Counted from the stretch's first letter, positions 6,881-31,197 are shown. The stretch is DNA of 32,000 bases from Delftia acidovorans NBRC 14950 (GCF_001598795.1 NZ_BCZP01000008.1:150001-182000); one strand, 5' to 3'. The notes: a model not told the origin generated them from the letters alone. Numbers and translations are program-made.

Positions 6881-7336
6881 ATGGGAAATCCCGATTTCGC
6901 GAACCGTCTGGCAGACGCTCGAAGCCGTCTGCACCTGACCCAGGTCGAACTGGCCGTGGCCAGCGATATTGCCGCCACACAGATCAGCCGTTACGAGACC
7001 AGGAGGGCCAAGCCGCGCCCGGACGTTGCCAAGCGCCTGGCTGCCGCGCTCGCTGTGGATCTGGAGTGGTTGCTCAGCGGAACAGAGTCGCCGGAGAATG
7101 AAAAAGCGCCCAGTGGGGGCGAGCCTGCGTCAAATCTGGTCTTGCGAGCCACCGCGGATACGGCAAGGCGATGGGGGGAAATCCTTGCCAGAACCGGACT
7201 GGCGCCAGAGCAGCTGTTTCGCCGGATGGTGCTTGAGTTCGAGGCGCAGACAGAGACCAGGTACGGAGAACTTCTTCACCGTATCGAGCGGTTGGAGCAG
7301 GCGTTGGGAGGCCATAAGAACGTTGGAAAAGACTAG
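6881..7336 (+). CDS. XRE-family helix-turn-helix transcriptional regulator
   Basis: The N-terminal HTH_XRE pattern is LADARSRLHLTQVELAVASDIAATQISRYETRRAKPRPDVAKRLAAAL. The 151-aa protein has a C-terminal half of unknown function. Confidence 0.8.
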   Translation: MGNPDFANRLADARSRLHLTQVELAVASDIAATQISRYETRRAKPRPDVAKRLAAALAVDLEWLLSGTESPENEKAPSGGEPASNLVLRATADTARRWGEILARTGLAPEQLFRRMVLEFEAQTETRYGELLHRIERLEQALGGHKNVGKD

Positions 7337-7342
7337 TCTTTT
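7327..7342. repeat. Copy 2 of the palindrome, AAAAGACTAGTCTTTT (perfect 16 bp), containing both convergent stop codons
   Basis: The central CTAG (7333-7336) supplies TAG for the XRE gene (7334-7336, +) and TAG for the Crp/Fnr gene (7333-7335, -). Both proteins therefore end in K-D-stop. Confidence 0.9.
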
Positions 7343-8076
7343 TTGCTGGCCGTCTGCCCTTCGCCGCCTCCATCCTGCACACCCGCCCCACTGATCCTCA
7401 ACAACACCGCAGGCTGCAGCACGCAATGCCATCGATCTGGCCGCTCCAGCGCGCCGAGCTGCACCAGGCGCACAAGGCTGCGCGCGATGGTTTCGCGCGT
7501 GGTGGCCAGCAGGGCGGCCAGTGCGCCCTGGCTGGGCAGGCGCACGAGCAGGCTTGACTGCAGCGCGGCCAGTTGCATCAGGGTGGCGGCCAGCTGGCGC
7601 AGCACGCCGGGGATGCGGACGATGTGGGCCCATTCCGCCAGCAGGGCGTTGTTGCAGGTGTAGCTGGTGGCCAGCGCGCGCACGAAGGCGGCATCGACCA
7701 GGCCGCGGCGCGTGATGGTGGCGATGTCCACGCAGCAGATGCGCCCCGGGCCCAGTGCCTCGAAGTGCATGGCCGAGGGCTGCTGCAGCCAGCCCGGGCT
7801 GCCCAGCGCATGGCCGTTGCCGAACAGCGCCACGGGCCGCTGCACGCCGTCGCCGCCACGGCGGATGGCCAGGACGAAGCCGATCTTGATCACCTGGAAT
7901 TCATGGGCGACGCTGCCCTGTGCCTGGAGCTTCTGGCCCTTGGCCAGGCCGCGTTCGCGGATATGCGGCAGCCATTGCTGGAATGCGGGCTCGGGCAATT
8001 GGCCCAGCAGGCAATGGGACGAACGCATGCATTCGCTGCAGCGAACCGCTGAAGGCGTGGAGGACGACGATGGCAT
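7333..8076 (-). CDS. Crp/Fnr-family transcriptional regulator with an FNR-like N-terminal Cys cluster
   Basis: The N-terminal CSECMRSSHC (C-x2-C-x5-C) has the same spacing as E. coli FNR C20/C23/C29, and an internal ICCVD may correspond to the fourth Cys. A central beta-roll-like effector domain is present. The C-terminal HTH is LLATTRETIARSLVRL. Confidence 0.8.
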   Translation of the reverse strand: MPSSSSTPSAVRCSECMRSSHCLLGQLPEPAFQQWLPHIRERGLAKGQKLQAQGSVAHEFQVIKIGFVLAIRRGGDGVQRPVALFGNGHALGSPGWLQQPSAMHFEALGPGRICCVDIATITRRGLVDAAFVRALATSYTCNNALLAEWAHIVRIPGVLRQLAATLMQLAALQSSLLVRLPSQGALAALLATTRETIARSLVRLVQLGALERPDRWHCVLQPAVLLRISGAGVQDGGGEGQTASKKD

Positions 8077-8263: not shown

Positions 8264-9250
8264 TCAGACGGCTGCGGTGCTGTCGGCGTTGTTGGCGCTG
8301 CCGCTGCTGTCACTGCTGCCACTGCTGCCACTGCCGTGCGCGCGGGCAGCCTCGCGCATGCGTGCCAGTTCGCGTGCGGGCAGCGGGATGTCGCCGCTGG
8401 CGACCTTCATCAGCAGGCAGTGCAGCATTTCGGTGGACAGGCCGTGCAGCACCAGGCGGTGGCCGGCGCGCAGGGTGGACAGGGGCACCAGCGGGTGCTT
8501 GTTGTTGAGCATGACCAGATGCTCGGGCGAGGCGAGGATCTTGGCCGCATAGATGGCCACGGTCTCGTCCAGCTGCAGCGAGTTGCTGGCGCGCCAGAAG
8601 TCGTTGTCGGTCAGCAGCAGCTGGTAGACGGGCGTGTAGACCTCGATGGCGCTTTGCAGGTCCAGCAGGTTCAGGCGCCCGCGCGGCATGTCCTCAAGGC
8701 GCAGGGGCGGGTTGCGCAGCATGGCGAAGTCGGGCTCGGCCACGGGCTGCAGTTCCTGGCCTGCGGCGCGCAGCGCGTTGTTCAGGCGGATGACGAAGTT
8801 GAACAGGTTCAGGTCGTGCCTGAGGAACAGGTCGTCCTTGATGTCGTCGATGCTGTCCGGCTCCAGCGGTGTGGTGGACACGGGCGTGGGCGCGTTGGCC
8901 GCGACAAAGGCCAGGATCTGCGAGCCCAGGTGGAAATGGCGCAGGATGAGCCAGTTGGCCTCGGGCGAGACGAAGCGGTTCATGCTGAAGGCCAGCAACC
9001 GGTGCAGCAGCCTGGAGTGCGCCCAGTTGCGCGGCAGCAGCACCTTGAGGATCTGGATGAGCACGATGCTGGTGCGTGCCAGCGGCCGCAGGAAGGGCAG
9101 CAGGTACTGGCGCGAGCCGCTGCTGCAGTCACGCAGCCAGGCGGCCTTGACGTCGTCGGGCAGCGGCGTGCTCTGGTCCAGGTACAGCGCGCGCCAGGGG
9201 CTGGGGTCGCGCTCGTCGTGGGGCGGTTCGATAAAGTCTGGTGGTTGCAT
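8264..9250 (-). CDS. Hypothetical protein (328 aa) with a Ser/Gly-rich C-terminal tail; last gene of the lipid-type operon
   Basis: The start ATG at 9250-9248 overlaps the TGA of the upstream gene (ATGA). The sequence begins MQPPDFIEPPHDERDPSPW.... It has one hydrophobic segment (ARTSIVLIQILKVLLP) and ends HGSGSSGSSDSSGSANNADSTAAV. I recognise no family. The 659-aa ORF in the track (8264..10243) is an upstream extension of this reading frame that overlaps the KAS III::HDO gene out of frame. Confidence 0.7.
   Translation of the reverse strand: MQPPDFIEPPHDERDPSPWRALYLDQSTPLPDDVKAAWLRDCSSGSRQYLLPFLRPLARTSIVLIQILKVLLPRNWAHSRLLHRLLAFSMNRFVSPEANWLILRHFHLGSQILAFVAANAPTPVSTTPLEPDSIDDIKDDLFLRHDLNLFNFVIRLNNALRAAGQELQPVAEPDFAMLRNPPLRLEDMPRGRLNLLDLQSAIEVYTPVYQLLLTDNDFWRASNSLQLDETVAIYAAKILASPEHLVMLNNKHPLVPLSTLRAGHRLVLHGLSTEMLHCLLMKVASGDIPLPARELARMREAARAHGSGSSGSSDSSGSANNADSTAAV
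8296..8334. repeat. Trinucleotide/9-nt low-complexity repeat encoding the Ser/Gly tail
   Basis: GCTGCCGCTGCTGTCACTGCTGCCACTGCTGCCACTGCC contains ACTGCTGCC units in tandem. All units are in frame. Confidence 0.8.
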
Positions 9251-11202
9251 CAGTGCTCCTCGGGCAGGACATGCTCGAACTGCATCAGGTACAGCGCCGC
9301 CGTGTGGCGCGCGGTGCGCACGATGGCCTGCGCCGCCGTGCCCCCGCTGCCGTCTGTGCCGTCCAGCGCCATCACCATCTGCACGGCCATGAGCCAGCGC
9401 TCCAGGTGGTGTTCGTCGTTGGCTCCGTGGTATTCCAGGAAGCGGAAGGCATCGGGCGGCAGCGGCAGGCTGGCGCGCAGCAGCGGCAGCAGGCTGGGCA
9501 CGATGCGCTGGCCCGTGCCTTCGATGATGTAGATGGCGCCCAGCAGGCCGATCGGATTGGGCGTGGCGGCCAGGCCGTGCAGGTAGGCGTTGAGCGCCTC
9601 GCCGCCGGGGTTGCGGCGCAGGCGGGTGAGGTCGGTCTCGGTGCCGCCGGCCTTGAGGTAGTCCTCGTGCAGGATGCGGAAGTCGTTCTGCTCCTCGCCC
9701 GCATGCACGTCGATCAGCGCGGCCAGCGCCGCGTGCTCGCCGGTCAGCGAGGCCGCGCCCTCGCGCATCCACAGGCTGCCCTCGCGCACTTGGGGAACCC
9801 AGTGGCTCATCCAGCGCACGTAGTCGGCGGTCTGCAGCCTGCCTGTGCGTATGCGCTGCAGCAGCGGCGTGCGCCACACGCGCGAGCGGTAGTCCTGCCA
9901 GAGGCTGGCCAGTTCGGTCAGCAGCGGCGCCAGCGTGGCCGGGGCCTGGTTCGGGTCGTGGGGCGGGGCGATGGTGGAGACATCGGGCAGCAGGTCCGGG
10001 GCAGCGGGAGCTTCGGCGGTGGCACTGCGTGCTGTGGCCTTGGCCAGGGTGGCGGCGGGAGCCTGGGCCGCATCCTCCACTTCCAGCAGCATGTAGCCGG
10101 CCGTGAAGCGGCCCGATTCGGGAATGAAGCACAGCACGGTATCGCCGTGCTTCAGGCGTGCCGATTCCGTGCGCAGGAACTCGGACAGCATCACGAAGAT
10201 GGAGGCCGCGCCCGTGTTGCCGCGCCAGGCCAGGTTGCTCCACCAGCGCTCGCGCGGGATGCCGAGCTGGGCCTTGCCCAGCAGCTCATCGACCACGGGG
10301 ATGAAGCGCTCGGACGAGTAGTGGCACAGGAAATGGTCGATGCCGCGCCCGGGCACCCAGCCCGTGTGGGCCAGGTGGGCGTATTCGTGGATGCAGACAT
10401 CGAACAGGTGCGGCAGCAGGCGGATGTCCTGGCGCAGCGACAGCGCGCCTGCGGCCTCGGCATCGCCCCAGGCGGCAAAGTCCAGGTGGCTGGTGGCGCG
10501 GTCGGGCGTCAGGCCCAGCTGCATGCAGACCGGGTAGTCGCCCGCAAAGCTGCGCAGGTGCGTCCAGCGCAGCTTCAGGCGCAGGCCGGGCGCCTGGGGC
10601 AGGGCCTGCGGGCCGCCCAGCAGCACGGCGCCTGCGCCATCGGACAGCATCCAGCGCAGGAAGTGGGCGTCGAAATCCGTGTTGTATCCCTGGGCCGCGA
10701 AGCGCGAGCGCTTGAACAGGCGCGAGGGCATTTCGCTGGCCACGGCCAGGGCCAGCAAGTCGGGCGCGCGGTCCACGGCCTGGGCCGCTGCCTGCAGCGC
10801 GCCCACGCTGGCGGCGCAGACGCCGTGCACGGACAGGGTCTCCATGGGCGGCGCGGCCATCTCGCCCTGGATCATGTTGGCAAAGCCGGGCATGAGCGCA
10901 TCGCCGCCCGACGAGCCGCTGGCCAGGAAGCCGACATCGCCCAGCGCACGCCCGGCCTGTGCCAGGCAGTCATGGATGGCCTGGGCGGCCATGGCCGTGT
11001 TGCTGTGGACGGTGCGGCCTTCGGCGTCTATGGCGTAGTGGCGCTGGACAATGCCGTTCTCGGCCAGGATGCGGCGCTTGAGGCGCTCGGACAGGCGGTT
11101 GAGCGGCGCCACGTAGGCATCCATGCCTGCGTTGTCCACGGGTTCACCGGGCAGGAACATGCCTGCGGCATGCAGATAGACGTTGGAATAGGCGACGGGC
11201 AT
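9250..11202 (-). CDS. Fusion protein: KAS III (FabH-like) condensing-enzyme domain + heme-oxygenase-like diiron oxidase (iron-containing redox enzyme family) domain
   Basis: - The protein is 650 aa.
- aa 1-376 (nt 10075-11202) carry a Cys/His/Asn triad in KAS III contexts: HGVC129AAS, FLCH294YSS and RGN329TGAAS.
- aa 377-425 form an Ala/Pro-rich linker.
- aa 426-650 (nt 9253-9927) are helical, with carboxylate/His ligand-like motifs: HAGEEQNDFRILHED, IIEGTG and LEYHGANDEHHLE. Confidence 0.8.
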   Translation of the reverse strand: MPVAYSNVYLHAAGMFLPGEPVDNAGMDAYVAPLNRLSERLKRRILAENGIVQRHYAIDAEGRTVHSNTAMAAQAIHDCLAQAGRALGDVGFLASGSSGGDALMPGFANMIQGEMAAPPMETLSVHGVCAASVGALQAAAQAVDRAPDLLALAVASEMPSRLFKRSRFAAQGYNTDFDAHFLRWMLSDGAGAVLLGGPQALPQAPGLRLKLRWTHLRSFAGDYPVCMQLGLTPDRATSHLDFAAWGDAEAAGALSLRQDIRLLPHLFDVCIHEYAHLAHTGWVPGRGIDHFLCHYSSERFIPVVDELLGKAQLGIPRERWWSNLAWRGNTGAASIFVMLSEFLRTESARLKHGDTVLCFIPESGRFTAGYMLLEVEDAAQAPAATLAKATARSATAEAPAAPDLLPDVSTIAPPHDPNQAPATLAPLLTELASLWQDYRSRVWRTPLLQRIRTGRLQTADYVRWMSHWVPQVREGSLWMREGAASLTGEHAALAALIDVHAGEEQNDFRILHEDYLKAGGTETDLTRLRRNPGGEALNAYLHGLAATPNPIGLLGAIYIIEGTGQRIVPSLLPLLRASLPLPPDAFRFLEYHGANDEHHLERWLMAVQMVMALDGTDGSGGTAAQAIVRTARHTAALYLMQFEHVLPEEH

Positions 11203-11217: not shown

Positions 11218-12153
11218 TCAGTCGTATGTTCCGGGAGGCATTTGCGCACGCGTGCGCGCCGGCGGCCAGACCGTGCCGAGCACGAAGACGCGGGCCATGT
11301 AGGGTAGCAGTCCGCCTTCGTTGAGCGCAGGTGTCACGCGCTGGCGATAGTGTTCGCTGTGCAGGCGCGTGAGCTCGGACCAGTGGGCCTGGGGCCGCTC
11401 GTGGTGGGCCGTGTGCAGGCCGATGTTGAACAGCAGCGGATTGACCCAGCCCTCGAAATTGCGTGCGTAGTTCAGTGGCGTGGCGCTGTCCATCCGCTGG
11501 CCGCGCGTCAGCGGCCGGCCATCGGCATGGGCGTGCTGCAGGTAGTTGGTGGCCAGCAGCCAGTGCAGGCCATGCAACTGGGGAACGATCACCAGCAGCA
11601 AGGCCTTTTGCCAATCCAGCGACAGCAGCAGTGCCCAGCTGCCCAGCCACAGCAGGTACTGGCCCATGCAGTAGCGAAAGGCACCGGGCCAATGCCGCCG
11701 CAGCTGGCCCAGCCAGCGCAGGAACAGCGGGTACAGCACCCAGCCGGCCTGCAGCGGGTGGAGCAGGTAGCCCGGCAGATGGTTGTGGTCGCCGCCGAAG
11801 CGGTAGGTGCGTGCCATGTCGCGCGGGCCGTGGCGGAAGCGGTGGTGGTTGGCCACATGGGCGGGCCAGAACACAAAGGTCGGGTGGCCCTGCAGCAGGG
11901 TCAGCCAGTAGTCGGTGAAGCGGTTGGCCCAGCGCCCGCGCCACATGCGCAAATGCGTGTGGTTGTGGTGGATGACGCCCACGCCCAGCGTGAGGAACAG
12001 CTCGATCCCGTAGAGCCACAGGTTCCAGCCGTGCTGCCACTGCCACCACACGATCAGCGGCAGCGCCACCAGATAGGCCAGCGACTGCAGGTCGCGCCAG
12101 TGGCGCAGCCGGGGCAGCCATGGCTGGGCGTGGCGAGCAGGTGGTCGGCTCAT
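11218..12153 (-). CDS. Membrane fatty acid desaturase family protein (three His boxes)
   Basis: The His boxes are IHHNHTH, HVANHHRFRH and HTAHHERP, with hydrophobic segments between them. The ATG at 12153 overlaps the upstream TGA (ATGA). Confidence 0.8.
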   Translation of the reverse strand: MSRPPARHAQPWLPRLRHWRDLQSLAYLVALPLIVWWQWQHGWNLWLYGIELFLTLGVGVIHHNHTHLRMWRGRWANRFTDYWLTLLQGHPTFVFWPAHVANHHRFRHGPRDMARTYRFGGDHNHLPGYLLHPLQAGWVLYPLFLRWLGQLRRHWPGAFRYCMGQYLLWLGSWALLLSLDWQKALLLVIVPQLHGLHWLLATNYLQHAHADGRPLTRGQRMDSATPLNYARNFEGWVNPLLFNIGLHTAHHERPQAHWSELTRLHSEHYRQRVTPALNEGGLLPYMARVFVLGTVWPPARTRAQMPPGTYD

Positions 12154-12896
12154 TCCGTCCTGGGCCGGGCCGTGGCGGGCAGTGCTACGCGCGTTCGCAT
12201 CAGCCGGTCCATGAAGGCCAGCGCAAAGCCGTAGTTGCCATTGGGCCGGGCATGGTGCAGATGGTGGCGCCGGCTGGCGGCCAGCGCATGCGTGTCGGAC
12301 ACCCCGGGAAAGAAGTCATAGTTGGAGTGGCCTATGACGTTCAGCAGCAGGCTGAGTACCGGCACCGAGGCCAGCGACCAGAAACTGAAGTCATGCACCA
12401 CCATGGGCAGCAGGATGACGTTGCCCAGCATCAGCGCTTCGATGGGATGAAAGCTGTAGGTGGACCACGGCGTGGTGACGATGGAGCGGTGGTGGTCACC
12501 ATGAAAGCGCCCCAGCAGCCGCGTATGCAGCAGGCGGTGGTTGATCCAGAAATGCACATCGTTCCAGATCAGCAGCACCGCGATTTCGATGGCAATGCGC
12601 CAGGGGCCTGCATCGGGCTCCAGCCGCGCCCACCCCAATTGCAGAAGGCCCCAGGGCACGATCATGCCGATGCCGAAGATCAGCACCGAATGCAGCGACT
12701 GGCGCCATTCGCGGCGCAACTGATCGGGCTTGAGCGGGCGCGTGTCCAGCACGCGGCCCACGCCGCGCCGCTGCAGCCAGCGCGTAAGCGCCGTCATGCC
12801 CCAGCCGCCGGTCGTGTACAGCACGCCGAAGAAGAGCAGGCCCCAGGCCATGACCTGCCAGGCGTTGAGTTCGGTGAAGGCTTGGGCAGCGGTCAT
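12150..12896 (-). CDS. Fatty acid hydroxylase / sterol desaturase superfamily protein
   Basis: The His motifs are HFWINHRLLH, HGDHHRS, GHSNYD and RHHLHHARPNGNYG, which is the FA_hydroxylase pattern. Multiple TM segments are present. I prefer the ATG start at 12896, but a GTG at 12914 (1 nt after the Bug stop) is possible. Confidence 0.8.
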   Translation of the reverse strand: MTAAQAFTELNAWQVMAWGLLFFGVLYTTGGWGMTALTRWLQRRGVGRVLDTRPLKPDQLRREWRQSLHSVLIFGIGMIVPWGLLQLGWARLEPDAGPWRIAIEIAVLLIWNDVHFWINHRLLHTRLLGRFHGDHHRSIVTTPWSTYSFHPIEALMLGNVILLPMVVHDFSFWSLASVPVLSLLLNVIGHSNYDFFPGVSDTHALAASRRHHLHHARPNGNYGFALAFMDRLMRTRVALPATARPRTE

Positions 12897-12915
12897 GGCA
12901 GTGTGATCGAGCACG

Positions 12916-13908
12916 TCATTGCGCGTGGATTCCCTGTTCGCGGATGATGCGGCCCAGTGCCGTCACGTCCTGGCGTATGCGCAGGGCCAGGCCCTCGGGT
13001 GAGCTGCCGACAGCCTGCCAGCCCTGGGCGGCCAGGCGTGCACGCATCTCGGGCGAGCGCACGATCTCGCTGACCGCTTCGGCCAGCTTCTGCACATGGG
13101 CGGCGGGCATGGCCTTGGGCGCGGCCACGGCGTTCCAGATCTCCAGATCGAAATCCCCCACGCCCAGCTCCTTGAGGCTGGGCAGTCCCGGCGCCAGCGG
13201 GCTGCGCGCGGCCGACGTCACGGCCACGCCGCGCAGCTTGCCGGCCTGCACCTGGGCCATGGCCAGTGCGGGCGGCAGCATGGACAGCTGCAGGTCGCCG
13301 CCCTGGATGGCGTTGAACACCTGCGGATAGCCGGGGTAGGGAATGTGTTCGGGCCTGAGCGCGGAGCGGCTCTTGAGCAGCTCCATGCCCAGGTGGCCCA
13401 CCGTGCCCACGCCTGGGGAACCGTAGCTCCAGCGGCTGCCGGCCTGGGCAGCGGCCTCCAGGAAGGCCCGGCCTTCGGGCGCGCCAGCCGGAGCCACCAG
13501 CACCAGGGGCGCCACGCCGATCAGGCTGACGGGCTGCAGGTCCTTCACAGGGTCGTAGCGCACGGCGGGGTTGAGCAGGCGGGCAATCGTCAGGTTGCCG
13601 TTGATCATCACGCTGAAGGTATGGCCGTCGCGCGCACGGGCCACCTGCTCGCCTGCGATGTTGCCGCCTGCGCCCACCTTGTTCTCGACGATGACGGGCT
13701 GGCCCAGACGCTTTTCCAGCGGCTCGGCCAGTGCGCGCGCCGTGAGGTCCGGGGAAGATCCTGCGGGAAAGCCGACGATCAGGTGCAGCGGCTTGCTGGG
13801 CCAGTTGTCGCCCGCCACGGCAGCGCAAGGCAGCAGGGCCGAGGCCAGGGCGGTGGCCAAGGCATTGGCGAAGAGGCGGCGTAGTGGCGAGATGGCGCTG
13901 GCGGGCAT
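12916..13908 (-). CDS. Bug family (TctC-like) periplasmic tripartite tricarboxylate transporter substrate-binding protein
   Basis: The signal peptide is MPASAISPLRRLFANALATALASALLPCAAVA. It is followed by WPSKPLHLIVGFPAGSSPDLTARAL, typical of Bug proteins. The track start at 13941 is a TTG, so I prefer the ATG at 13908. Confidence 0.85.
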   Translation of the reverse strand: MPASAISPLRRLFANALATALASALLPCAAVAGDNWPSKPLHLIVGFPAGSSPDLTARALAEPLEKRLGQPVIVENKVGAGGNIAGEQVARARDGHTFSVMINGNLTIARLLNPAVRYDPVKDLQPVSLIGVAPLVLVAPAGAPEGRAFLEAAAQAGSRWSYGSPGVGTVGHLGMELLKSRSALRPEHIPYPGYPQVFNAIQGGDLQLSMLPPALAMAQVQAGKLRGVAVTSAARSPLAPGLPSLKELGVGDFDLEIWNAVAAPKAMPAAHVQKLAEAVSEIVRSPEMRARLAAQGWQAVGSSPEGLALRIRQDVTALGRIIREQGIHAQ

Positions 13909-13942
13909 GGGGTACGTGGGGGCCGCAAAGGCTGCGGACAAT

Positions 13943-13968
13943 AAAAAACCCGGAGATTATCCGGGTTT
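13943..13968 (-). terminator. Rho-independent terminator of rpoH
   Basis: The minus strand reads AAACCCGGA-UAAUC-UCCGGGUUU followed by UUUUU. The 9-bp stem pairs 13946-13954 with 13960-13968. It lies 38 nt after the rpoH stop. Confidence 0.8.
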
Positions 13969-16201: not shown

Positions 16202-17179
16202 ATGCCCAGTTTCGCCGCCCGCCGTTGTGCAAGGGCCATTGCGTTCATTGCCGTGCTCGCGACTGTCTGCAGCGCAGCATCTGCAGCCTTCCCGGAAAAG
16301 CCCGTGCGCCTCGTCGTGCCCTTTGCGCCAGGCGGTGGAACGGACCTGATCGCCCGCACGCTGGGGGCCGAGATGGCCAAGGACCTGGGCCAGCCCGTCA
16401 TCGTGGACAACAAGCCCGGTGCCGGCACGATCATCGGCACCGACAACGTTGCCAAGAGTGCGCCGGACGGTTACTCCGTGGTCGTGGCTTCGTTCGCGCA
16501 CGCCGTCAATCCGGCGTTGCAGGCCAAGCTGCCGTACGGGAGCAACAAGGCCTTTGCTCCGGTGATCCTGATCGGCCGCGGCCCCAACGTGCTGGTGGTG
16601 CCCGCCGCCAGCCCGTACAAGACGGTGGCGGACGTGATGGCCGCCGCCAAGGCCAGTCCCGACAAGCTGACCTATGCCTCGCAGGGCGCCGGGACTTCGG
16701 CGCATCTGGCGGGTGAGCTGTTTGCCAACCTTGCCAAGGTCAGGCTCACCCATGTGCCCTACCGCGGCGCAGGCCCGGCGCTCACCGATCTCATGGGCGG
16801 GCAGGTGGACATGATGTTCGCCACGGCGGCGGCGGTATCCACCTTCATCGACAACGGCAAGCTGCGCGTACTGGGTGTCACCACGGCCGAGCCGTCAGCG
16901 GCCTTCAAGAACGTGCCACCCATCGCCGTCACCGTCCCGGGCTACCGCGTCGAGAGCTGGTACGGCCTGTACGCGCCGGCAGCCACACCTGCCGCCGTGA
17001 TCGATCGCCTGAACGCCGCGGCCCGCAAGGCGGCCCGCTCGCCGGAGTTCGTTCGCAAGCTGGAGCACGAGGGCCTGATGGTCAATGCAGGACCTGCCGC
17101 GGAACTGGACACCTATGTGCAGGCCGAGGAAAAGCGCTGGGCGCAGATCGTCAAGCAAAACAACATCCATCCCGATTGA
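16202..17179 (+). CDS. Bug family (TctC-like) periplasmic substrate-binding protein
   Basis: A signal peptide is followed by FPEKPVRLVVPFAPGGGTDLIARTL, and the length (325 aa) is typical. It is divergent from the IclR gene. Confidence 0.85.
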   Translation: MPSFAARRCARAIAFIAVLATVCSAASAAFPEKPVRLVVPFAPGGGTDLIARTLGAEMAKDLGQPVIVDNKPGAGTIIGTDNVAKSAPDGYSVVVASFAHAVNPALQAKLPYGSNKAFAPVILIGRGPNVLVVPAASPYKTVADVMAAAKASPDKLTYASQGAGTSAHLAGELFANLAKVRLTHVPYRGAGPALTDLMGGQVDMMFATAAAVSTFIDNGKLRVLGVTTAEPSAAFKNVPPIAVTVPGYRVESWYGLYAPAATPAAVIDRLNAAARKAARSPEFVRKLEHEGLMVNAGPAAELDTYVQAEEKRWAQIVKQNNIHPD

Positions 17180-17212
17180 TCGCACTGGCTGCGATCGCTT
17201 TCAAAGCACGCC

Positions 17213-18004
17213 ATGAACTACGAACTGATCCAACTGAATGTCGCCGATGCGGTGGCGACCGTGACCCTGAACCGCCCCGACAAGCGCAACGCCATGAGTG
17301 ACGACATGCGCACCGAGTTCATTGATGCCCTGGAGCGCGTGGCGGCAGACAAGGCCATCAAGGCCCTGGTGCTGACAGGCGCGGGCAAGGGATTTTGCGC
17401 AGGCGGTGACATTGCCGGAATGCAAAGGCGCATGAATGCTCCCGCGGGCGAGGTGGGCTTCAACGGCTGGCAGCGCCAGCAGCGCGTGCACCATGTCCAG
17501 GCCCTGCTGCATACCATGCCCAAGCCCGTGATCGCCGCCGTCAACGGCGCAGCGTCGGGCCTGGGGGCGGACACGGCGCTGGCCTGCGACTTCGTGATCG
17601 CCAGCGAATGGGCCAGCTTCGCGTGGAGCTATGTGCTGCGCGGCATCATCCCGGACGGCGGCGGCATGTACTTCCTGCCGCGCCGTGTGGGCCTGGCCAA
17701 GGCCAAGGAGCTGATCTTCACGGGGCGCCAGGTCAAGCTGCCGGAAGCCCTGGCCCTGGGCATCGTGGACCGCCAGGCCAGTGCCGAGACCTTGGTGGCA
17801 GAGGCCCAGGCCTGGGCGCGCGAGCTGTCCTCGGCTTCTTCCACCGCGCTGGCATTGACCAAGACCATCCTGAACCAGAGCTTCGAGCTGTCTTCGCACG
17901 ATGTCTTCGCCCAGGGCAGCCAGGCCCAGGGCATCTGCTACACCAGCAGTGAACACCGCGCATCGGTGGAGGCCTTCCTGGCCAAGACAGCCGGCAAGGA
18001 GTGA
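17213..18004 (+). CDS. Enoyl-CoA hydratase/isomerase (crotonase) family protein
   Basis: Crotonase motifs are present: LNRPDKRNAM, LTGAGKGFCAGGDI and AAVNGAASGLGADTALACDF. Confidence 0.85.
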   Translation: MNYELIQLNVADAVATVTLNRPDKRNAMSDDMRTEFIDALERVAADKAIKALVLTGAGKGFCAGGDIAGMQRRMNAPAGEVGFNGWQRQQRVHHVQALLHTMPKPVIAAVNGAASGLGADTALACDFVIASEWASFAWSYVLRGIIPDGGGMYFLPRRVGLAKAKELIFTGRQVKLPEALALGIVDRQASAETLVAEAQAWARELSSASSTALALTKTILNQSFELSSHDVFAQGSQAQGICYTSSEHRASVEAFLAKTAGKE

Positions 18005-18008
18005 TGCC

Positions 18009-20111
18009 ATGAGCGAAGCCATTGCCAAGCTGCTGTCGCCGCGCAGCGTCGCCGTCATAGGCGCCTCTGCCGACCTGAAAAAGACCACGGGCCGTCCGGT
18101 GGCCTACCTGCAAAAGCACGGGTTTGCCGGCCGCATTCTTCCCGTCAATCCGCGCGTGGAGCGCATCGGCGATCTGGCCTGCTATCCCGATGTGGCCTCG
18201 TTGCCTGAAGTGCCTGATGTGGCCGTCGTGCTGCTGGGCGCCGAGCGTGCGCACCAGGCCGTCAGGGAGCTGTCGGCGCTGGGCTGCGCGGCAGCCATCG
18301 TGCTGGCCAGCGGCTATACGGAAACGGGCGAGGAGGGCGCACTGCGCCAGCGGCAATTGGTCGAGGCGGCCGGCAGCATGCGCCTGCTGGGGCCCAACAC
18401 CATCGGGCTGGTCAACCTGACCGACCGGATCGTGCTGTCGCCCTCGGGCGCGCTGGAGATGGACGAGTTCCCCGTCGGAGGCATCGGTGTCGTCTCGCAA
18501 AGCGGCGGCATCCTGGGCTCGCTGCTGTCGCGCGCCGCCGCGCGTGGCATCGGCCTGTCCAAGCTCATCTCCACCAGCAACGAAGTCGATCTGGAACTGG
18601 CCGATTTCATCGACCACCTGGCCGATGACCCGGCCACCAAGGTGATCGCGCTGTATGTGGAGACGGTGCGCCATCCCGCCAGGTTCCGTGCCGCCTGCCT
18701 GAAGGCCGCGCGTGCCGGCAAGCCCGTGGTGGCCTTCAAGATCGGCCGCTCCGAGGCTGGCGCCAAGGCTGCCGTATCGCACACGGGGGCCATGGCCGGT
18801 GCGGATCGCATGTACGACGCGCTGTTCCGGCAGGTCGGCGTGATCCGTGCGCAAAGCTTTGCCGACCTGCTGGACGTGCCCGCTGCGCTGGCCACGGGCC
18901 GCAGGCTGCGCGGCAGGCGCATCGCCATCCTGACGTCCACCGGCGGTGCGGGCACCCTGGTGTCGGACGATCTGGGCGTGGCCGGATTCGACACGCCGGC
19001 CCCTGACCAGGCGACGGCCGACGCACTGCGCGCGCTGCAGACCGGCAGCGAGGCCGTGCTGGACCGCAACCCCATCGACGTGACCCTGGCGGGCCTGCGT
19101 CCCGACCTGCTGCGCGGCGCCATCAATGCCTTGCTGGCAAGCCCCAGCTACGACGCGCTGGTGATCATCGTCGGCTCCTCCAGCCTGGCCATGCCCGAGC
19201 TGCTGGCCGGTGCCATCCAGGACTGCCTGCCCCACTCCGACAAGCCGGTGCTGGCCTACGTCAGCCCGCATGCGCCGGAAATCGGCGCGCTGCTCACGCA
19301 ACGCGGCGTGCCGGCCTTCGCTGCGGCGGAAAGCTGCACGGCCGCGCTGGCGGGCATGCTGCGCGTCAACGGCTTCCAGGGTGCGCCTTCCGAGCTGGTC
19401 GTAGGAAAAGGCTCCCTGCATGACCAGGACCTGCCCGTTGGCTGCCTCGATGAAGCGCAGGCCAAGGCCGTTTTCCGCCGTTTCGGCGTGCCGTGCGCGG
19501 CCGAGCGTGTGGTGCGCACCGCCGAAGAGGCCGAAGCCGCCGCGCGCGAACTGGGCGGCCGGGTGGTGCTCAAGATCCTTTCGTCCCAGATCACGCACAA
19601 GAGCGATGTGGGCGGTGTCGCCGTCGGCCTGACTGCGCAAACCATAGGTGCCCGGATGGGCGCGATGGTGGCCGAGGTGCAGGCCAGGGCGTGCGTGCGC
19701 CCGGACCGGTTCCTGGTGCAGCAGATGGTGGCTGGTGGCACCGAGCTGATTCTTGGCCTGCACAAGGATGCGCTGGGCACCGCCGTGATGCTGGGCATGG
19801 GAGGCGTGACGGCCGAGCTGTTCCAGGACACCACGCTGCGGTTGCTGCCGGACGACGGCTCACAGCTGGGGGTGCTGAGCCTGTCTGACGCACTGGAGAT
19901 GGCCAGGGAGCTCAAGACCTGGCCGCTGCTGGACGGCTTTCGCGGCCGGCCCAGGGCCGATGTCGATGCGCTGGCCCATGCCATCGTCGCGTTCTCTGCA
20001 ATGGCCGCCCGGCTGGGCGACCGCGTGATCGAAGCGGAGATCAACCCGGTGTTCGTGCTGCCGCAGGGCCAGGGCGTGTGCGCTGCCGATGGTGTGCTGG
20101 TTCTGGCCTGA
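18009..20111 (+). CDS. NDP-forming acyl-CoA synthetase (acetate--CoA ligase family, CoA-binding + ATP-grasp domains)
   Basis: The N-terminal CoA-binding block is LLSPRSVAVIGASADLKKTTGRPV. Succinyl-CoA-ligase-like middle domains are present, including VSHTGAMAG. The C-terminal ATP-grasp carries VVLKILSSQITHKSDVGGV. The ATG at 18009 lies 4 nt after the hydratase stop. Confidence 0.8.
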   Translation: MSEAIAKLLSPRSVAVIGASADLKKTTGRPVAYLQKHGFAGRILPVNPRVERIGDLACYPDVASLPEVPDVAVVLLGAERAHQAVRELSALGCAAAIVLASGYTETGEEGALRQRQLVEAAGSMRLLGPNTIGLVNLTDRIVLSPSGALEMDEFPVGGIGVVSQSGGILGSLLSRAAARGIGLSKLISTSNEVDLELADFIDHLADDPATKVIALYVETVRHPARFRAACLKAARAGKPVVAFKIGRSEAGAKAAVSHTGAMAGADRMYDALFRQVGVIRAQSFADLLDVPAALATGRRLRGRRIAILTSTGGAGTLVSDDLGVAGFDTPAPDQATADALRALQTGSEAVLDRNPIDVTLAGLRPDLLRGAINALLASPSYDALVIIVGSSSLAMPELLAGAIQDCLPHSDKPVLAYVSPHAPEIGALLTQRGVPAFAAAESCTAALAGMLRVNGFQGAPSELVVGKGSLHDQDLPVGCLDEAQAKAVFRRFGVPCAAERVVRTAEEAEAAARELGGRVVLKILSSQITHKSDVGGVAVGLTAQTIGARMGAMVAEVQARACVRPDRFLVQQMVAGGTELILGLHKDALGTAVMLGMGGVTAELFQDTTLRLLPDDGSQLGVLSLSDALEMARELKTWPLLDGFRGRPRADVDALAHAIVAFSAMAARLGDRVIEAEINPVFVLPQGQGVCAADGVLVLA

Positions 20112-20182
20112 GGGCGCCAGGTACTGCACATTTCTTCCAAAAAAAGACGGCCTCATTGAGGGCCAGTCCAAGGAGACCGCAC

Positions 20183-21538
20183 ATGCATGCGACCGAAGTG
20201 TTGGGGGAGTTTGCCGCTCAATACCACCGTACCGAGCTTCCCGAAGCCGTCATCCACCATGCCAAGCGTGCCGTGATCGACTGGTATGCCGCTTTGTTCC
20301 CGGGGCTGGGCGCGGCCCCTCTTGCACAGTTGGAGCAGGTGCTTGCCGAGGACCTGGACCGCGGCTCCTGCCGGCTTGGAAACGGCCGCATGGCCACGGC
20401 GCGGGCGGCGGCACTGCTCAACGGTTCGGCGGCCCATGCCGCCGAGGTGGACGACAGCTTCCGCGATGCCATGTACCACCCCGGGGCCGCAACCATTGCG
20501 GCGGCGCTGGCGGCAAGCCAGCAGGCAGGGGCCAGTGGCCTGGACTTCCTGCGTGCCGTGGTGCTGGGCTATGAGGTCTCCACCCGCATCGGCGTGACCC
20601 TGGGCCGGGCCCACTACCGCTTCTGGCACAACACCGGCACCGTGGGCGTCTTCGGGGCAGCGGCAGCCGCAGGGTATGCGCTGCGGCTGGATGCAGGGCA
20701 ATTCGCCCATGCACTGGCCACGGCGGCCACCTTCTCTGCCGGGTTGCAGCAGGCATTTCGCATGGATTCGATGTCCAAGCCCCTGCATGCCGGGCGCGCA
20801 GCGGAGGCCGGCCTGCTGGCCGCGCAGCTTGCGCACCAGGGGGTGACGGGATCGCTGGACGTGCTGGATGGAGAACTGGGCCTGGGCCGCGCAGTCAGCG
20901 ACGGACCCGACTGGTCAGACATCGGTGCGACCCTGGGCAGGGACTTCCACATTACCCGGCTCACCTTCAAGAACCACGTCGGCTGCGGTCATACGTTCGC
21001 CGCCATCGACGCCGCGCTGGCCTTGCGCAGCCAGCATGCCCTGCGGGCGGACGACATCTGCAGCGTGGCCGTGGCCACCTATGGCCCGGCCCTGGATATT
21101 GCCTGCTACACCGATCCTGCGACGGAAAACGAAGCCCGCTTCAGTCTTCGTTTCGTGGTGGCCACGGCCCTGGTCCATGGCAGCGTGCGGCTTTCGGCGT
21201 ACAGCCCGGAGCGCCTGGCCGATCCCGCCGTTCGCGCAATGCTTGGGCGTGTCCAGGTGGCCGTGGACCCGCAAATCGACCGGGCCTTCCCTGGCAAGAG
21301 ATCGGCACGCGTGGAAATCGTCACCAGGGATGGCCGCTGCCATGGCTGGTTCCAGCCGGACCGCAAGGGCGATCCCGAGCTGCCTCTGTCGGATGGAGAG
21401 CTGGAGGACAAGTTCATCGAGCTTGCCGCGCCCGTCGCCGGCGAGGGACGTGCCCGGCAGCTGCTTTCCAACATCTGGGAGCTTGAACGGGCGGGCTGCC
21501 TTGCAGGCCTCGCGGCCTGGCCTTCAGCAGGCCTGTGA
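20183..21538 (+). CDS. MmgE/PrpD family protein (2-methylcitrate dehydratase superfamily; substrate unknown)
   Basis: The 451-aa protein has a PrpD-family pattern: [25 protein letters not shown] and [17 protein letters not shown]. An RBS (AGGAGA) lies at 20171-20176. Confidence 0.8.
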
Positions 21539-23494
21539 CAGCTGCTCCAGGATCGCCGGGTTCTCCAGGGTGGAGGTGTCCTGCACGATGGGCTCGCCGC
21601 GTGCAATGCTGCGCAGCAATCGCCGCATGATCTTGCCGCTGCGGGTCTTGGGCAGGTTGTCGCCGAACCGGATGTCCCTGGGCTTGGCGATCGGCCCGAT
21701 CTCCTTGGCCACCCACTCCCGCAGCAGCCTGGCGATGTCGGCCGCCTCGGCGCCGCTGGGCCGCGAACGCTTGAGGACGACGAAGGCGCATATGGCCTCT
21801 CCCGTCGTGTCATCGGGCCGCCCCACGACGGCGGCCTCCGCCACCAGGTCGGTCATGGCCACCAGGGCGGACTCGATCTCCATCGTGCCCATGCGGTGGC
21901 CGCTGACGTTGAGCACATCGTCGATGCGGCCGGTGATGGTGAAGTAGCCGGTGCGCGCATCGCGGACCGCGCCGTCTCCCGCCAGGTAGTAGCGGCCCTT
22001 GAATTCTTCGGGAAAGTAGCTGGCGACAAACCGCTCGGGATGGCCCCAGATGTTCCTGATCATGGAGGGCCAGGGGCGCTTGATCACCAGGATGCCGCTG
22101 TCGCCCCAGGGCAGCTCGTTGCCGGCCTCGTCCACCACGGCGGCGGCAATGCCCGGGAAGGCCAGTGTGCAGGAGCCGGGCACGAGGTCCGTGGCTCCGG
22201 GCAGCGGCGTGATCATGTGCCCGCCCGTCTCCGTCTGCCAGAACGTATCGACGATGGGGCAGCGGCCCCCGCCCACCTGCTCGTGGTACCAGTGCCAGGC
22301 GGCGGGATTGATCGGCTCGCCCACGGACCCCAGGATGCGCAGGCTGCCCAGGTCGTAGCGCGCGGGATGCACCTGCGCATCGGCGTCGGCGGCCTTGATC
22401 AGCGAGCGAATGGCCGTGGGCGCCGTGTAGAAGACCGTCACCCCATGGGCCTCGATCATTTTCCAGAAGCGTCCCGCGTCCGGGTAGGTGGGCACGCCCT
22501 CGAACACCACCTGCGTGGCGCCCAGCGCCAGCGGGCCGTAGGCGATATAGGTATGGCCGGTCACCCATCCGATGTCCGCCGTACACCAGAAGACATCGCA
22601 GGGCTGCAGGTCGAAGGTCCAGGCGCAGGTCACGGCGGCGTGCAGCAGATAGCCTCCCGTGGCGTGCTGGACGCCCTTGGGGGTTCCGGTGGAGCCCGAG
22701 GTGTAGAGCAGGAACAGCGGATGCTCGGCCTGCACCCATTCCGGTTCGCAGACATCGCTCTGGGCTGCGGTGATTTCTTCAAGCCACAGGTCCCGGGGCT
22801 GGTGCATGGCGATGGCGCCGCCCGTGCGCCGTGCCACCAGCACGTGGCGGACCTGCTCGCAGCCGGGCTGGGCCAGGGCCTCGTCCACGATGCTCTTGAG
22901 GGGCAATTGCCGTCCTCCCCGCACTTGCTGGTCTGCCGTGATGACGGCGCAGGCCCCCGTGTCCGCGATGCGGTCGCGCAGCGCCGTGGCGGAGAAGCCG
23001 CCGAACACCACGCAGTGAATGGCACCTATGCGTGCACAGGCCTGCATGGCGGCCACGCCGTCAATCGACATGGCCATGTAGATGACGACGCGGTCGCCCT
23101 TGCCGACACCCAGGCTGCGCAGGGCGTTGGCCAGGCGATTGACCCGGACAAGAAGCTGCGCATAGGTCACCTGCGTCACCGCGCCGTCATCGGCTTCGAA
23201 GATGAGGGCCGTGCGCTCGCCCAGCCCCCGCTGGATGTTGCGCTCCAGGCAGTTCCAGCTGGCGTTGAGCGTGCCGTCGTTGAACCATTCGTAGAACGGG
23301 GCGCGGCTTTCATCGAGCACGCGCGTGAACGGGCGCTTCCACGCGACGAACTCGCGCGCGAGCCGGCCCCAGAACGCCTGGGGATCGGCGTCCGCCTCCG
23401 CGACGAGCCGGTCATAGGCGGCGCGCCCGCTCACGCGCGCATTGCGGGCCAGCTCTGCAGATGGGGGATAGGACGGTGCAAGGTCTTGGCTCAT
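21524..23494 (-). CDS. acs: Acetyl-CoA synthetase (AMP-forming acetate--CoA ligase)
   Basis: The 656-aa protein carries the Acs-typical N-terminus ([20 protein letters not shown]...[17 protein letters not shown]). The AMP-binding motif [11 protein letters not shown] and the blocks WQTETGG and [11 protein letters not shown] are present. Confidence 0.9.
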
Positions 23495-23601: not shown

Positions 23602-24513
23602 TCAGTCCCCGCAGTGCCGGCCTATCCAGCCGGCAATGGCCGCCACGCTGCGGAAGTCGTCGCAGGAGCGGGCCGGAATGTCCGGATGGCGCTGGTTCCA
23701 CAGGCGTGCCAGCGCCTGGCCGGGGCCGATCTCCAGAACGCACCGCACCTGGCGTGCGGCAATGCTGTCCATGCAGTCGTCCCAGTGCACCGTGCCCGCT
23801 ATCTGCTCGGACAGGGCTGCACGGGCGCCTGCGGCGTCACGCACCCGCCGGGCCGTGTTGCTGAAAAGCGCCACGGCGGGCGCGTGCACGGCCACCTGGC
23901 CCAGGTCCTGTGCGAAGGCCTGGGCGGCCTGGCGCATCCACGGGGTGTGGGACGCCACCTGCACGCGCAGCCGGGTGGCATGCGCGCCCTGGCGGGCCGC
24001 CAGCGCCTGCGCCTGCTCCAGTGCCGCGTGGGGGCCGCCCAGGATGAGGTTCTCTGGCCCGTTGCGTATGGCCACGGCCAGCCCGGTCGTCTCCAGCAGG
24101 GCGGCCATGCGCGCGGGCGGCAGGCCGCTGACGGCCAGCAGCCCGCCGCCGGGCATCTGCTGCGCGCAGCGGTCCATGGCCGCCGCGCGGCGCGCGGCCA
24201 GGGCAACGATGTCGCAGGCATCCAGCGCGCCCGCGGCACCGAATGCGGGCAGTTCCCCCACGCTGTAGCCCGCCACGGCCGAAGGCGCGGGCAGTTGCGG
24301 GGACAGCTGCATCCACGCGGCCATGGCCAGGCCCGCCAGCAGCGGCTGGGCCACGGCGTTGGACTCGGCCCACGGCGCATCCGCCAACCTGTCGCGCCAG
24401 TGCGAAACCTGCAGCTGTTCGCAGACTGCCTGTGTCCATGCATCGTCCGCCAGCCAGGGGAGCATGGCGGGATGCTGCGTACCCTGGCCCGAAAACAGCA
24501 GTGCAAAGCTCAT
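23602..24513 (-). CDS. mdcH: Malonate decarboxylase epsilon subunit (malonyl-CoA:ACP transacylase)
   Basis: MSFALLFSGQGTQHPAML and GYSVGE form the FabD-like acyltransferase active-site motif. The ATG at 24513 overlaps the mdcB TGA (ATGA). Confidence 0.85.
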   Translation of the reverse strand: MSFALLFSGQGTQHPAMLPWLADDAWTQAVCEQLQVSHWRDRLADAPWAESNAVAQPLLAGLAMAAWMQLSPQLPAPSAVAGYSVGELPAFGAAGALDACDIVALAARRAAAMDRCAQQMPGGGLLAVSGLPPARMAALLETTGLAVAIRNGPENLILGGPHAALEQAQALAARQGAHATRLRVQVASHTPWMRQAAQAFAQDLGQVAVHAPAVALFSNTARRVRDAAGARAALSEQIAGTVHWDDCMDSIAARQVRCVLEIGPGQALARLWNQRHPDIPARSCDDFRSVAAIAGWIGRHCGD

Positions 24514-26778: not shown

Positions 26779-26783
26779 GGCGG

Positions 26784-27701: not shown

Positions 27702-28030
27702 GGCTGGCCTCCCTGCAGTTCGGCCAGGGCCTGGTCCAGCCGCAGGCTGACCACGGCCGGCGTGGCCCCCATGTCGTTGATGGACACGCGCACGCCGCCC
27801 ACAGGGTGGCGCTCGCGAAAATCCTCCACCACGGCCTGCCAGATGGCGCCGAAGCCGTGTGCCGAGGTCTGCACCTGCACTTCGCAGCCATCGCCGCCCG
27901 TGCTCTCCAGCATCACCTCCAGATTGCCCGAGCCGACCACGCCGACCAGGACGGGGGCAAAGGCGCCGGCCGGCCGGCCGCCTGCGAAGCAATAGCTCAG
28001 GGACTCCAGCCCTGCGGGTATCTCGCTCAT
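27698..28030 (-). CDS. mdcC: Malonate decarboxylase acyl carrier protein (delta subunit)
   Basis: The 110-aa protein contains VLVGVVGSGNLEVMLE, which holds the prosthetic-group Ser context of MdcC/CitD-type ACPs. An AGGAGA RBS is present. Confidence 0.85.
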   Translation of the reverse strand: MSEIPAGLESLSYCFAGGRPAGAFAPVLVGVVGSGNLEVMLESTGGDGCEVQVQTSAHGFGAIWQAVVEDFRERHPVGGVRVSINDMGATPAVVSLRLDQALAELQGGQP

Positions 28031-28040
28031 GTCGTCTCTC

Positions 28041-29723: not shown

Positions 29724-29787
29724 GGGGTATCAGGGGTTGGCGTGACATGGAGGGGGCAGGGGGCGGGCGTCCCGTCGAAGTGCCTGG

Positions 29788-31161: not shown

Positions 31162-31197
31162 GCGATGTCTCCGGTTTTTTATGCGCCTGCAATACGT

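Follow-up and report, generated by a model that had tools for sequence, protein, structure and literature searches.

A StlD/DarB-type ketosynthase fused to a predicted heme-oxygenase-like dimetal oxidase domain in a conserved bacterial gene cassette

Introduction

DarB-type ketosynthases condense a β-ketoacyl thioester with a 2-enoyl thioester to a carboxy-cyclohexanedione, which DarA aromatises with loss of CO2; homologues that occur without DarA form a recognised and unexplained orphan group (PMC6836626). Heme-oxygenase-like dimetal oxidases and oxygenases (HDOs) are defined by a seven-helix bundle with six metal ligands, namely a Glu and a His on core α1, a Glu on core α2 and an HxxxDxxH motif on core α3 (RohS paper, PMC13133933), and are known to carry out N-oxygenation, olefin formation, methine excision and nitrile formation (PMC13133933). 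Here we analyse a gene that joins members of these two families, at positions 9250-11202 of a 32,000-nucleotide stretch of Delftia acidovorans NBRC 14950 (NZ_BCZP01000008.1:150001-182000). This whole stretch is called the window, and all coordinates are counted from its first letter.

Two further features of the described systems bear on the comparison. For three of the HDOs, UndA, BesC and AetD, the carboxylate of the substrate acts as the trigger, and the first two produce olefins (PMC13133933). A further, seventh Glu on auxiliary (aux) α2, which not all HDOs have, is the mark of a substrate-independent subgroup (PMC13133933; for SznF, PMC7848743), the assigned members of which, SznF and RohS, are N-oxygenases (PMC13133933). 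Oxidative decarboxylation of a ring carboxylate is also described for COQ4 (PMC10680789).

Results

One gene encodes a ketosynthase and an HDO-like domain

The fusion gene and its parts are arranged as follows.

9250..11202, minus strand: fusion gene, 650 aa, comprising a StlD/DarB-type ketosynthase, a linker and an HDO domain; stop codon at 9250-9252
10075..11202, minus strand: ketosynthase domain, aa 1-376, placed by NF005293, the StlD structure in the PDB (5gk0) and conservation
10816-10818, 10732-10734, 10321-10323 and 10216-10218, minus strand: ketosynthase catalytic residues Cys129, Glu157, His294 and Asn329, respectively
9973..10074, minus strand: variable Ala/Pro-rich tether, aa 377-410, placed by gaps and variability in alignments
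9253..9972, minus strand: HDO domain, aa 411-650, starting with I-A-x-P-H-D-P and placed by PF14518, a profile match to 3DDE, an AlphaFold2 model, Foldseek and conservation

From its ATG start codon the gene runs as one uninterrupted open reading frame (ORF) of 650 aa, in which Pfam recognises PF08541 and PF14518. Its GC content at codon positions 1, 2 and 3 is 0.72, 0.49 and 0.90 in a window of ~68% GC, a profile typical of a true gene. Long ORFs that overlap it on the opposite strand or in other frames lack this codon signature and were set aside as by-products of high GC. The nearest genomes are those of Delftia tsuruhatensis and D. acidovorans, with 98% protein identity. A search of a representative library at E ≤0.001 returned 1,166 relatives, and tightening the threshold to E ≤1e-30 left 163; full-length fusions were recovered to identities as low as 33%. 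All conservation figures given here refer to 193 distinct full-length homologues, with identities down to ~32%; each is encoded by an undivided ORF, and the gene was located at 76 genome loci in many genera. The fusion gene is real and widely conserved in bacteria. A previous reading of the window, made from its sequence alone (hereafter the sequence-only reading), had proposed exactly such a polypeptide, combining a condensing enzyme of the β-ketoacyl-acyl carrier protein (ACP) synthase III (KAS III) fold with an HDO-like domain bearing metal-ligand motifs, and the 193 one-ORF homologues bear it out. The same reading had named two genes separated by an overlooked frameshift or stop as the finding that would overturn it; instead, the same single ORF stands at the 76 loci, which together with the 193 distinct sequences rules out an artefact of assembly or a frameshift.

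The N-terminal domain resembles StlD and DarB

Across aa 8-375, the NCBIfam model NF005293 (StlD/DarB β-ketosynthase) aligns end to end with the N-terminal domain (E 2.9e-88, 296.5 bits), and the NCBIfam DarB model gives 228 bits; relatives with an HDO partner reach 380-424 bits on the StlD/DarB model. Pfam reports PF08541 alone in this domain, which corresponds to the C-terminal half of the KAS III fold. The closest solved relative is StlD of Photorhabdus (5gk0; E 6.4e-57, aa 6-375), and the remaining matches to KAS III, OleA and CorB structures all have E >1e-6. Cys129 aligns with the catalytic Cys of StlD, His294 with its catalytic His (mutated in 5gk2) and Asn329 with its catalytic Asn; they are found in 193, 192 and 191 of the 193 homologues, respectively. 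Glu157, present in 191/193, aligns with the active-site Glu of StlD (Glu154 by our own count from the 5gk0 alignment), for which the StlD structure paper reportedly describes a catalytic role. By these relationships the domain belongs to a divergent branch of the StlD/DarB family and is best described as a head-to-head condensing ketosynthase rather than a FabH-type elongating primer synthase. Its expected product would therefore be a carboxy-cyclohexanedione-type ring and not an elongated β-ketoacyl chain.

The sequence-only reading had identified the Cys129/His294/Asn329 triad, which the StlD alignment and conservation of at least 99% confirm. It had also called the domain FabH-like, an identity ruled out by scores of 46 bits on TIGR00747 (cut-off 292) and 63 bits on NF006829 (cut-off 249). 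That the N-terminal domain is nonetheless a plain FabH isozyme priming fatty-acid synthesis, or the fusion an assembly or frameshift artefact, is hardly credible: the sole point in favour is that databases label some homologues generically as 'beta-ketoacyl-ACP synthase III', and it stands against the same single ORF in 76 independent genomes, FabH scores far under their cut-offs and a StlD/DarB model that aligns end to end.

The C-terminal domain is modelled as an HDO-type helical bundle

PF14518 ('iron-containing redox enzyme') matches aa 469-608 with 32.3 bits, above its gathering score of 28.9, and is found in 9 of 11 diverse fusions. By sequence, 3DDE is the sole solved relative (E 4.5e-7 for one sequence alone, improving to 5e-13 when a profile of 22 sequences was used). 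Neither UndA nor BesC was matched at the sequence level at E≤10, and fixing ligand equivalences by sequence alignment to CADD or UndA was dropped, as only 3DDE could be reached in this way. An AlphaFold2 model of aa 420-650, built from the 22-sequence alignment, is all-helical with the expected set of long helices (predicted local distance difference test score (pLDDT) 94.7, predicted template-modelling score (pTM) 0.91). When compared with the PDB by Foldseek, the model matches 3DDE best (template-modelling score (TM) 0.81), along with CADD (0.79-0.86) and UndA (0.72-0.75). Lower matches, at a query-normalised TM of ~0.65-0.72, include the heme oxygenase HmuO, most TenA proteins and HrmI. TenA structures (TM 0.65-0.72, E at least 3e-4) rank beneath the HDOs, with the exception of the unassigned 'TenA homolog' PSPTO1738 (3oql; TM 0.71-0.74, E 3.7e-5 to 1e-4), which is level with UndA. 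No Pfam or NCBIfam model of the TenA/PqqC families matched the domain. On the evidence of the model, the C-terminal domain is a seven-helix heme-oxygenase-like bundle. The helical, HDO-type domain postulated in the sequence-only reading is borne out by this model, by its best matches to 3DDE, CADD and UndA and by the PF14518 score; the structure prediction that had been suggested as a check returned an HDO-type bundle for aa 420-650 and no TenA/PqqC family match.

Eight residues, E474, H500, E504, D507, E561, H592, D596 and H599, are candidate metal ligands of the HDO domain.

Core α1: E504, 98% conserved, the canonical Glu
Core α1: D507, 100% conserved, aligned with the His of 'E-x2-H' in 3DDE
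Core α1: H500, 99% conserved, four residues ahead of E504 and one turn upstream; a possible substitute His
Core α2: E561, 99% conserved (191/193), canonical; aligns with a Glu of 3DDE
Core α3: H592-x3-D596-x2-H599, conserved at 100%, 99% (D or E) and 97%, the canonical motif
Predicted aux α2: E474, 96% conserved, with a spacing of 30 residues to E504 that compares with 26 in SznF and RohS

On core α3, H592 is present in 190/190 ungapped sequences, D596 is D or E in 190/193 and H599 is present in 187/193. The motifs IIEGTG (containing E561) and YHGANDEHH (containing H592, D596 and H599) are conserved, as are E504 and D507 in EEQNDFRILHED. His512 in EEQNDFRILHED is only 78% conserved (Y, F or E elsewhere) and His598 is variable, so neither is a likely ligand. 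Of the ligand motifs put forward in the sequence-only reading, IIEGTG, EYHGANDEHH and E504 therefore stand, His512 does not, and the position of the core-α1 His is taken by Asp507. The domain probably shares most of the defining features of HDOs with a variant core-α1 arrangement, and is predicted to bind two metals.

The same data speak to whether the domain is active at all. A catalytically inert appendage, with a structural, regulatory or O2/iron-sensing role, or a self-sacrificing, CADD-like protein, would be in line with the presence of CADD among the best structural matches (TM 0.79-0.86) and with one subclade (P0128, P0130 and a third member of the alignment) in which E503/E504 are replaced by Tyr-Gly and H599 by Gln or Asn, two ligand positions being lost while the domain is kept. 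We consider this very unlikely, given that seven to eight candidate ligands are 96-100% conserved over 193 sequences to ~32% identity and that PF14518 is matched above threshold.

A variable linker joins domains that also occur separately

Across homologues the linker is 36-71 aa long (median 54), in keeping with the Ala/Pro-rich linker of about 50 aa described previously. Residues 377-405 are Ala/Pro-rich, gapped and variable. The end of the linker, residues 411-417 (I-A-x-P-H-D-P), is at least 90% conserved in proteobacterial members and leads into the first helix of the C-terminal domain, so the truly variable tether amounts to ~35 aa.

A distant relative on a soil contig (L080:3-2451) carries the two domains as separate genes: a 376-aa stand-alone ketosynthase, with 424 bits on the StlD/DarB model, is followed by a 239-aa HDO gene with a 4-nt overlap and a change of frame, and upstream of the ketosynthase a larger gene ends in a carrier-protein region. 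A second stand-alone ketosynthase (P0147) has an HDO fragment downstream. The separate genes of L080 imply that fusion is not required for the partnership. Direct channelling between the domains, which the sequence-only reading had read from their covalent fusion, loses ground in view of these overlapping genes and of a tether that is long and variable. Sequence comparisons place the partnership of ketosynthase and HDO as a clade within the DarB-like radiation, of which fusion is one state, and the fusions down to 33% identity together with the split versions mark it as ancient and specific.

The fusion gene belongs to a compact, conserved cassette

Three genes accompany the fusion gene in the window.

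8264..9250, minus strand: DUF6999 gene, 328 aa (PF22523, E 1.8e-129)
11218..12153, minus strand: membrane fatty-acid-desaturase-family gene, 311 aa (PF00487, E 2e-20)
12150..12914, minus strand: membrane fatty-acid-hydroxylase-family gene, 254 aa (PF04116, E 5e-22), with hydrophobic segments

The ATG of the DUF6999 gene overlaps the TGA of the fusion gene, and the two genes appear to be translationally coupled. The hydroxylase- and desaturase-family genes lie upstream of the fusion gene, close-packed on the same strand, with the start of the latter overlapping the stop of the former (ATGA); no solved relatives of their products were found. This context, an adjoining DUF6999 gene and two membrane genes of the di-iron type, was missing from the sequence-only reading and adds to it. 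No PP-binding domain (carrier protein), ligase or nitrogen-handling gene was found among the cassette genes. Likewise, none of them is annotated as a DarA/StlC aromatase, the searches having used no DarA model.

The order hydroxylase, desaturase, fusion, DUF6999 recurs among the 76 genome loci in β- and γ-proteobacteria, in Delftia, Comamonas, Acidovorax, Collimonas, Janthinobacterium, Undibacterium, Iodobacter, Chitinimonas, Chitinibacter, Andreprevotia, Rhodoferax, Casimicrobium, Cellvibrio and one metagenome-assembled genome (MAG) of Lysobacter. Most proteobacterial loci have the desaturase gene ahead of the fusion gene; none was detectable in two other Lysobacter/Novilysobacter genomes, Pseudoxanthomonas and Mesopusillimonas, where the cassette is otherwise kept. 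The cassette is also found in Bordetella genomosp. 1 and in Variovorax, where a PLD/cardiolipin-synthase-like gene lies directly upstream (L077:2758-4332). DUF6999 adjoins the fusion gene in nearly all loci, and the two are found alone in Corticibacter (L026) and beside the distant fusions P0124 (43% identity) and P0134 (37% identity). The minimal conserved module is therefore the fusion gene plus DUF6999.

Some members depart from this arrangement. P0137 (868 aa; MAG GCA_041389605.1, L084:4054-7073) holds the ketosynthase, the HDO domain and the N-terminal half of DUF6999 in one ORF, with the second half in an overlapping ORF; the locus resembles a triple fusion that a frameshift may have split. 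It is flanked by genes for a PapA/condensation acyltransferase, a PF10118 ferritin-like protein and an MMPL protein. In the ligand-degenerate subclade, the two members of which the context was examined, P0128 and P0130, are without DUF6999: P0128 has an MMPL transporter gene on one side and, on the other, a Coq4 homologue that overlaps it, whereas the gene downstream of P0130 belongs to the GH3 family. The subclade is represented at L082:5632-10588 and at L083. Near the cassette in two unrelated genomes (L077:10301-11137 and L084:1813-2595) lies a PF10118 'metal-dependent hydrolase' gene, with weak resemblance to COQ7/AurF-like, ferritin-like di-iron proteins. The neighbour of a classical DarB-like gene, L087, is a 301-aa protein that gave no family match, so its identity as DarA was not confirmed.

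DUF6999 homologues carry the source names 'DUF6999 family protein' or 'hypothetical protein'. Across β- and γ-proteobacteria their mean column identity is 68-70%, with many invariant His, Asp, Glu and Asn residues. This extreme conservation and these invariant residues suggest that DUF6999 is an enzyme. The protein has no strong transmembrane segment, and its predicted structure is all-α (pLDDT 80). There was no significant Foldseek match to the model in the PDB, no sequence match in the PDB and no NCBIfam match; no kinship with Coq4 could be detected (hhalign probability 0.1). The Delftia protein ends in a Ser/Gly-rich C-terminal tail, GSGSSGSSDSSGSANNADSTAAV (window 8264-8350), that is absent from homologues of other genera. 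At its other end, the invariant motif P-P-H-D-x-R-D-P-x-P-W (window 9196-9220) resembles the linker end of the fusion protein, I-A-P-P-H-D-P (aa 411-416, window 9955-9972). The shared motif could be a short docking motif or could have arisen by chance.

Local context in the window

The cassette is bounded by further genes and by a predicted terminator.

12916..13941, minus strand: TctC-family periplasmic binding protein gene (PF03401), packed against the cassette
13946..13968, minus strand: strong terminator-like hairpin separating rpoH from the TctC gene, AAACCCGGA...TCCGGGTTT and then a T-run (consensus scan only)
7333..8076, minus strand: Crp/Fnr-family regulator gene (Pfam), downstream of the cassette

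The hairpin, downstream of rpoH, is likely to bound the transcription unit on its upstream side. Only in Comamonadaceae is the cassette accompanied by TctC, rpoH and the Crp-type regulator, and the TctC gene is probably local context. The Crp/Fnr regulator is kept mainly in Delftia-like loci (75-97% identical, L001-L005), and Comamonas guangdongensis (L013) has one 51%-identical copy ~3 kb downstream. Because rpoH, TctC, Crp and the acyl-coenzyme A (acyl-CoA) genes of the window are not conserved with the cassette outside Comamonadaceae, we rejected them as cassette members.

Two other clusters lie farther away. Behind an IclR regulator, window 16202-23494 holds a second TctC-family gene and genes for an enoyl-CoA hydratase, an ADP-forming acyl-CoA synthetase, a PrpD/MmgE-family protein and an acetyl-CoA-synthetase-like protein; to judge by synteny, this acyl-CoA catabolic cluster is unrelated to the cassette. 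Window 24510-31997 encodes malonate decarboxylase components (CitG-like MdcB, MdcE, α subunit) in an operon, along with a dicarboxylate carrier of the MatC type and a LysR regulator, and is not conserved with the cassette.

Discussion

Proposed function

In broad terms, the fusion is likely to combine ketosynthase and dimetal-oxidase functions in one enzyme, within a conserved pathway to a fatty-acid-derived oxidised lipid, and this statement is much safer than any that names a reaction. More specifically, and tentatively, we favour the view that the HDO domain decarboxylates and aromatises, or otherwise oxidises, the carboxy-cyclohexanedione-type product of the ketosynthase, in place of DarA, in the synthesis of an oxidised fatty-acid metabolite, most plausibly a lipid.

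On this proposal, Cys129 would load an acyl thioester and join it head-to-head with a second fatty-acyl thioester. Because the cassette encodes no carrier protein or ligase, the second thioester would come from primary metabolism. As in characterised members of the family, the product would be a 2,5-dialkyl-carboxy-cyclohexanedione. The HDO domain would then bind two metals (Fe2 or Mn/Fe) through E504, D507 (and/or H500), E561, H592, D596 and H599, activate O2 and oxidise this product. UndA takes off CO2 together with a β-hydrogen, and an UndA-like oxidative decarboxylation would be the most economical reaction here: loss of CO2 and a neighbouring hydrogen would leave a ring double bond, turning the 4-carboxy-cyclohexane-1,3-dione into its 4,5-ene, the keto tautomer of a 2,5-dialkylresorcinol. 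Tautomerisation to the dialkylresorcinol would correspond to the job of the DarA aromatases in classical dar/stl clusters. Finally, DUF6999 may act on or with the same intermediate, and the hydroxylase-like and desaturase-like membrane enzymes, both of the di-iron type, may tailor the ring or the alkyl chains.

A different oxidation by the HDO domain has to be weighed against this scheme. The domain might hydroxylate, desaturate, cleave C-C bonds in or open the ring of the ketosynthase product, or act on its alkyl chains, with aromatisation and decarboxylation left to another protein (such as DUF6999) or occurring spontaneously. HDOs catalyse many types of reaction (PMC13133933), the candidate seventh ligand Glu474 recalls the substrate-independent subgroup, and the extreme conservation of DUF6999, with its invariant His, Asp, Glu and Asn, would suit an enzyme. 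Even so we regard this alternative as rather doubtful, since the carboxy-cyclohexanedione made by DarB-type enzymes needs exactly a two-electron decarboxylative oxidation (PMC6836626), the cassette has no nitrogen-handling genes, and one ligand-degenerate member, P0128, has a Coq4 homologue in the slot otherwise held by DUF6999. This last, circumstantial observation fits oxidative decarboxylation because COQ4 removes a ring carboxylate oxidatively (PMC10680789).

The order of the two steps could also be reversed, with the HDO domain acting ahead of the ketosynthase to prepare one of its two substrates; it might, for instance, introduce the 2-enoyl or β-oxo function into an acyl chain that is then passed to Cys129. 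DarB-type enzymes do need one β-keto and one α,β-unsaturated acyl thioester (PMC6836626), and a flexible tether would permit traffic both ways. We judge such an order improbable: both substrates are ordinary intermediates of the fatty-acid cycle for which no special supply is needed, the HDO follows the ketosynthase in the fusion and in the split version alike, and the substrate-triggered UndA, BesC and AetD use a free carboxylate, none of the HDOs named in PMC13133933 acting on a thioester.

Several points weigh against the view that the HDO domain stands in for DarA. The chemical steps set out above are all inferred. With 296.5 bits, the window protein lies under the curated NF005293 cut-off of 450, and the condensation chemistry of its ketosynthase could accordingly differ. 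The structural neighbours of the HDO domain, CADD ahead of UndA, do not tell reactions apart. The canonical core-α1 His position holds Asp507 in the fusion family, and the model puts Glu474 approximately where SznF and RohS carry the seventh Glu, so that the domain might resemble the substrate-independent subgroup; as a candidate seventh ligand, Glu474 argues against an UndA-like, carboxylate-triggered mechanism. DUF6999 itself could be the aromatase or decarboxylase. A lipid product, by comparison, fits the MMPL lipid-type exporters and the PapA-type acyltransferase found beside distant members, and the PF10118 genes near two loci are a further circumstantial point.

Significance

NCBI labels homologues of the fusion as 'iron-containing redox enzyme family protein' or 'StlD/DarB family beta-ketosynthase'; both domain families are already known, and it is the architecture and the operon that are uncharacterised yet widespread. 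Within the library searched, we found no paper on the ketosynthase-HDO architecture, on DUF6999 or on the cassette, in agreement with the sequence-only reading, whose author was aware of no characterised enzyme of this kind. One clade of the orphan, DarA-less DarB-type ketosynthases (PMC6836626) now gains a concrete, testable partner. None of the HDOs named in PMC13133933 acts on a polyketide- or fatty-acid-derived ring, and none is fused to a condensing enzyme; if the proposed reaction is correct, HDOs would gain a new class of substrate and, with Asp for the core-α1 His, a new variant of their ligand set. More speculatively, and we think it unlikely as it stands, the cassette might represent a second, so far overlooked route to resorcinol- or quinone-type lipids in which an HDO, fused to a DarB-type ketosynthase or paired with one, replaces DarA through UndA-like oxidative decarboxylation and DUF6999 is a new enzyme, the product being a widespread membrane redox lipid or signal in β- and γ-proteobacteria such as Delftia, Comamonas, Variovorax, Bordetella, Collimonas, Lysobacter and Cellvibrio. 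The cassette is tractable, with two to four genes that form a self-contained unit in easily grown bacteria, several of them of clinical or environmental interest.

Comparison with known systems

The StlD/DarB plus DarA/StlC systems of the dialkylresorcinol, stilbene and bartoloside pathways share with the fusion a ketosynthase that aligns over its full length, the Cys-His-Asn triad and the conserved Glu. The bartoloside and putative microcarbonin clusters are similar in having no dedicated ACP and in carrying desaturase or oxygenase genes beside the ketosynthase (PMC6836626). Unlike these systems, the Delftia locus has a covalent HDO domain and a DUF6999 gene, has no annotated aromatase and scores 296 bits against a cut-off of 450. 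The listianol pathway was considered as the same system and rejected, as it has a classical DarB/DarA pair.

With UndA and BesC the C-terminal domain shares the seven-helix fold, the Glu on core α2 and the HxxxDxxH motif on core α3. UndA and BesC act on carboxylates, in which they form a C=C bond by expelling CO2 or a carbon fragment; formally, this is what aromatisation of a carboxy-cyclohexanedione needs. They are stand-alone enzymes, however, whereas the fusion has Asp507 for the core-α1 His, the extra His500 and possibly Glu474 on aux α2, a Glu that UndA and BesC lack. The best structural match, 3DDE (Sden_3740 of Shewanella denitrificans, a structural-genomics protein), aligns at the core α2 and α3 ligand positions, but is a stand-alone protein of 239 aa with His where the fusion family has Asp507 and Glu474. 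CADD, the para-aminobenzoate synthase of Chlamydia and an Fe/Mn HDO, is likewise a dimetal HDO and gives the top target-normalised TM (0.85-0.86); it differs in its identity of 11-12% and in being a self-sacrificing enzyme of folate synthesis, of which the cassette context gives no hint. The likeness to COQ4 lies in the Coq4 homologue that occupies the overlapping downstream slot of the degenerate fusion P0128, whereas the Delftia window has no such gene and its DUF6999 shows no detectable homology (hhalign probability 0.1). SznF differs from the fusion in its partners, a dimerisation and a cupin domain, and in its reaction, N-oxygenation of an arginine derivative. In architecture it offers a parallel: an HDO fused to other catalytic domains that carries out successive steps on one polypeptide (PMC7848743), and its aux α2 bears a seventh Glu, a role that Glu474 might fill in the fusion.

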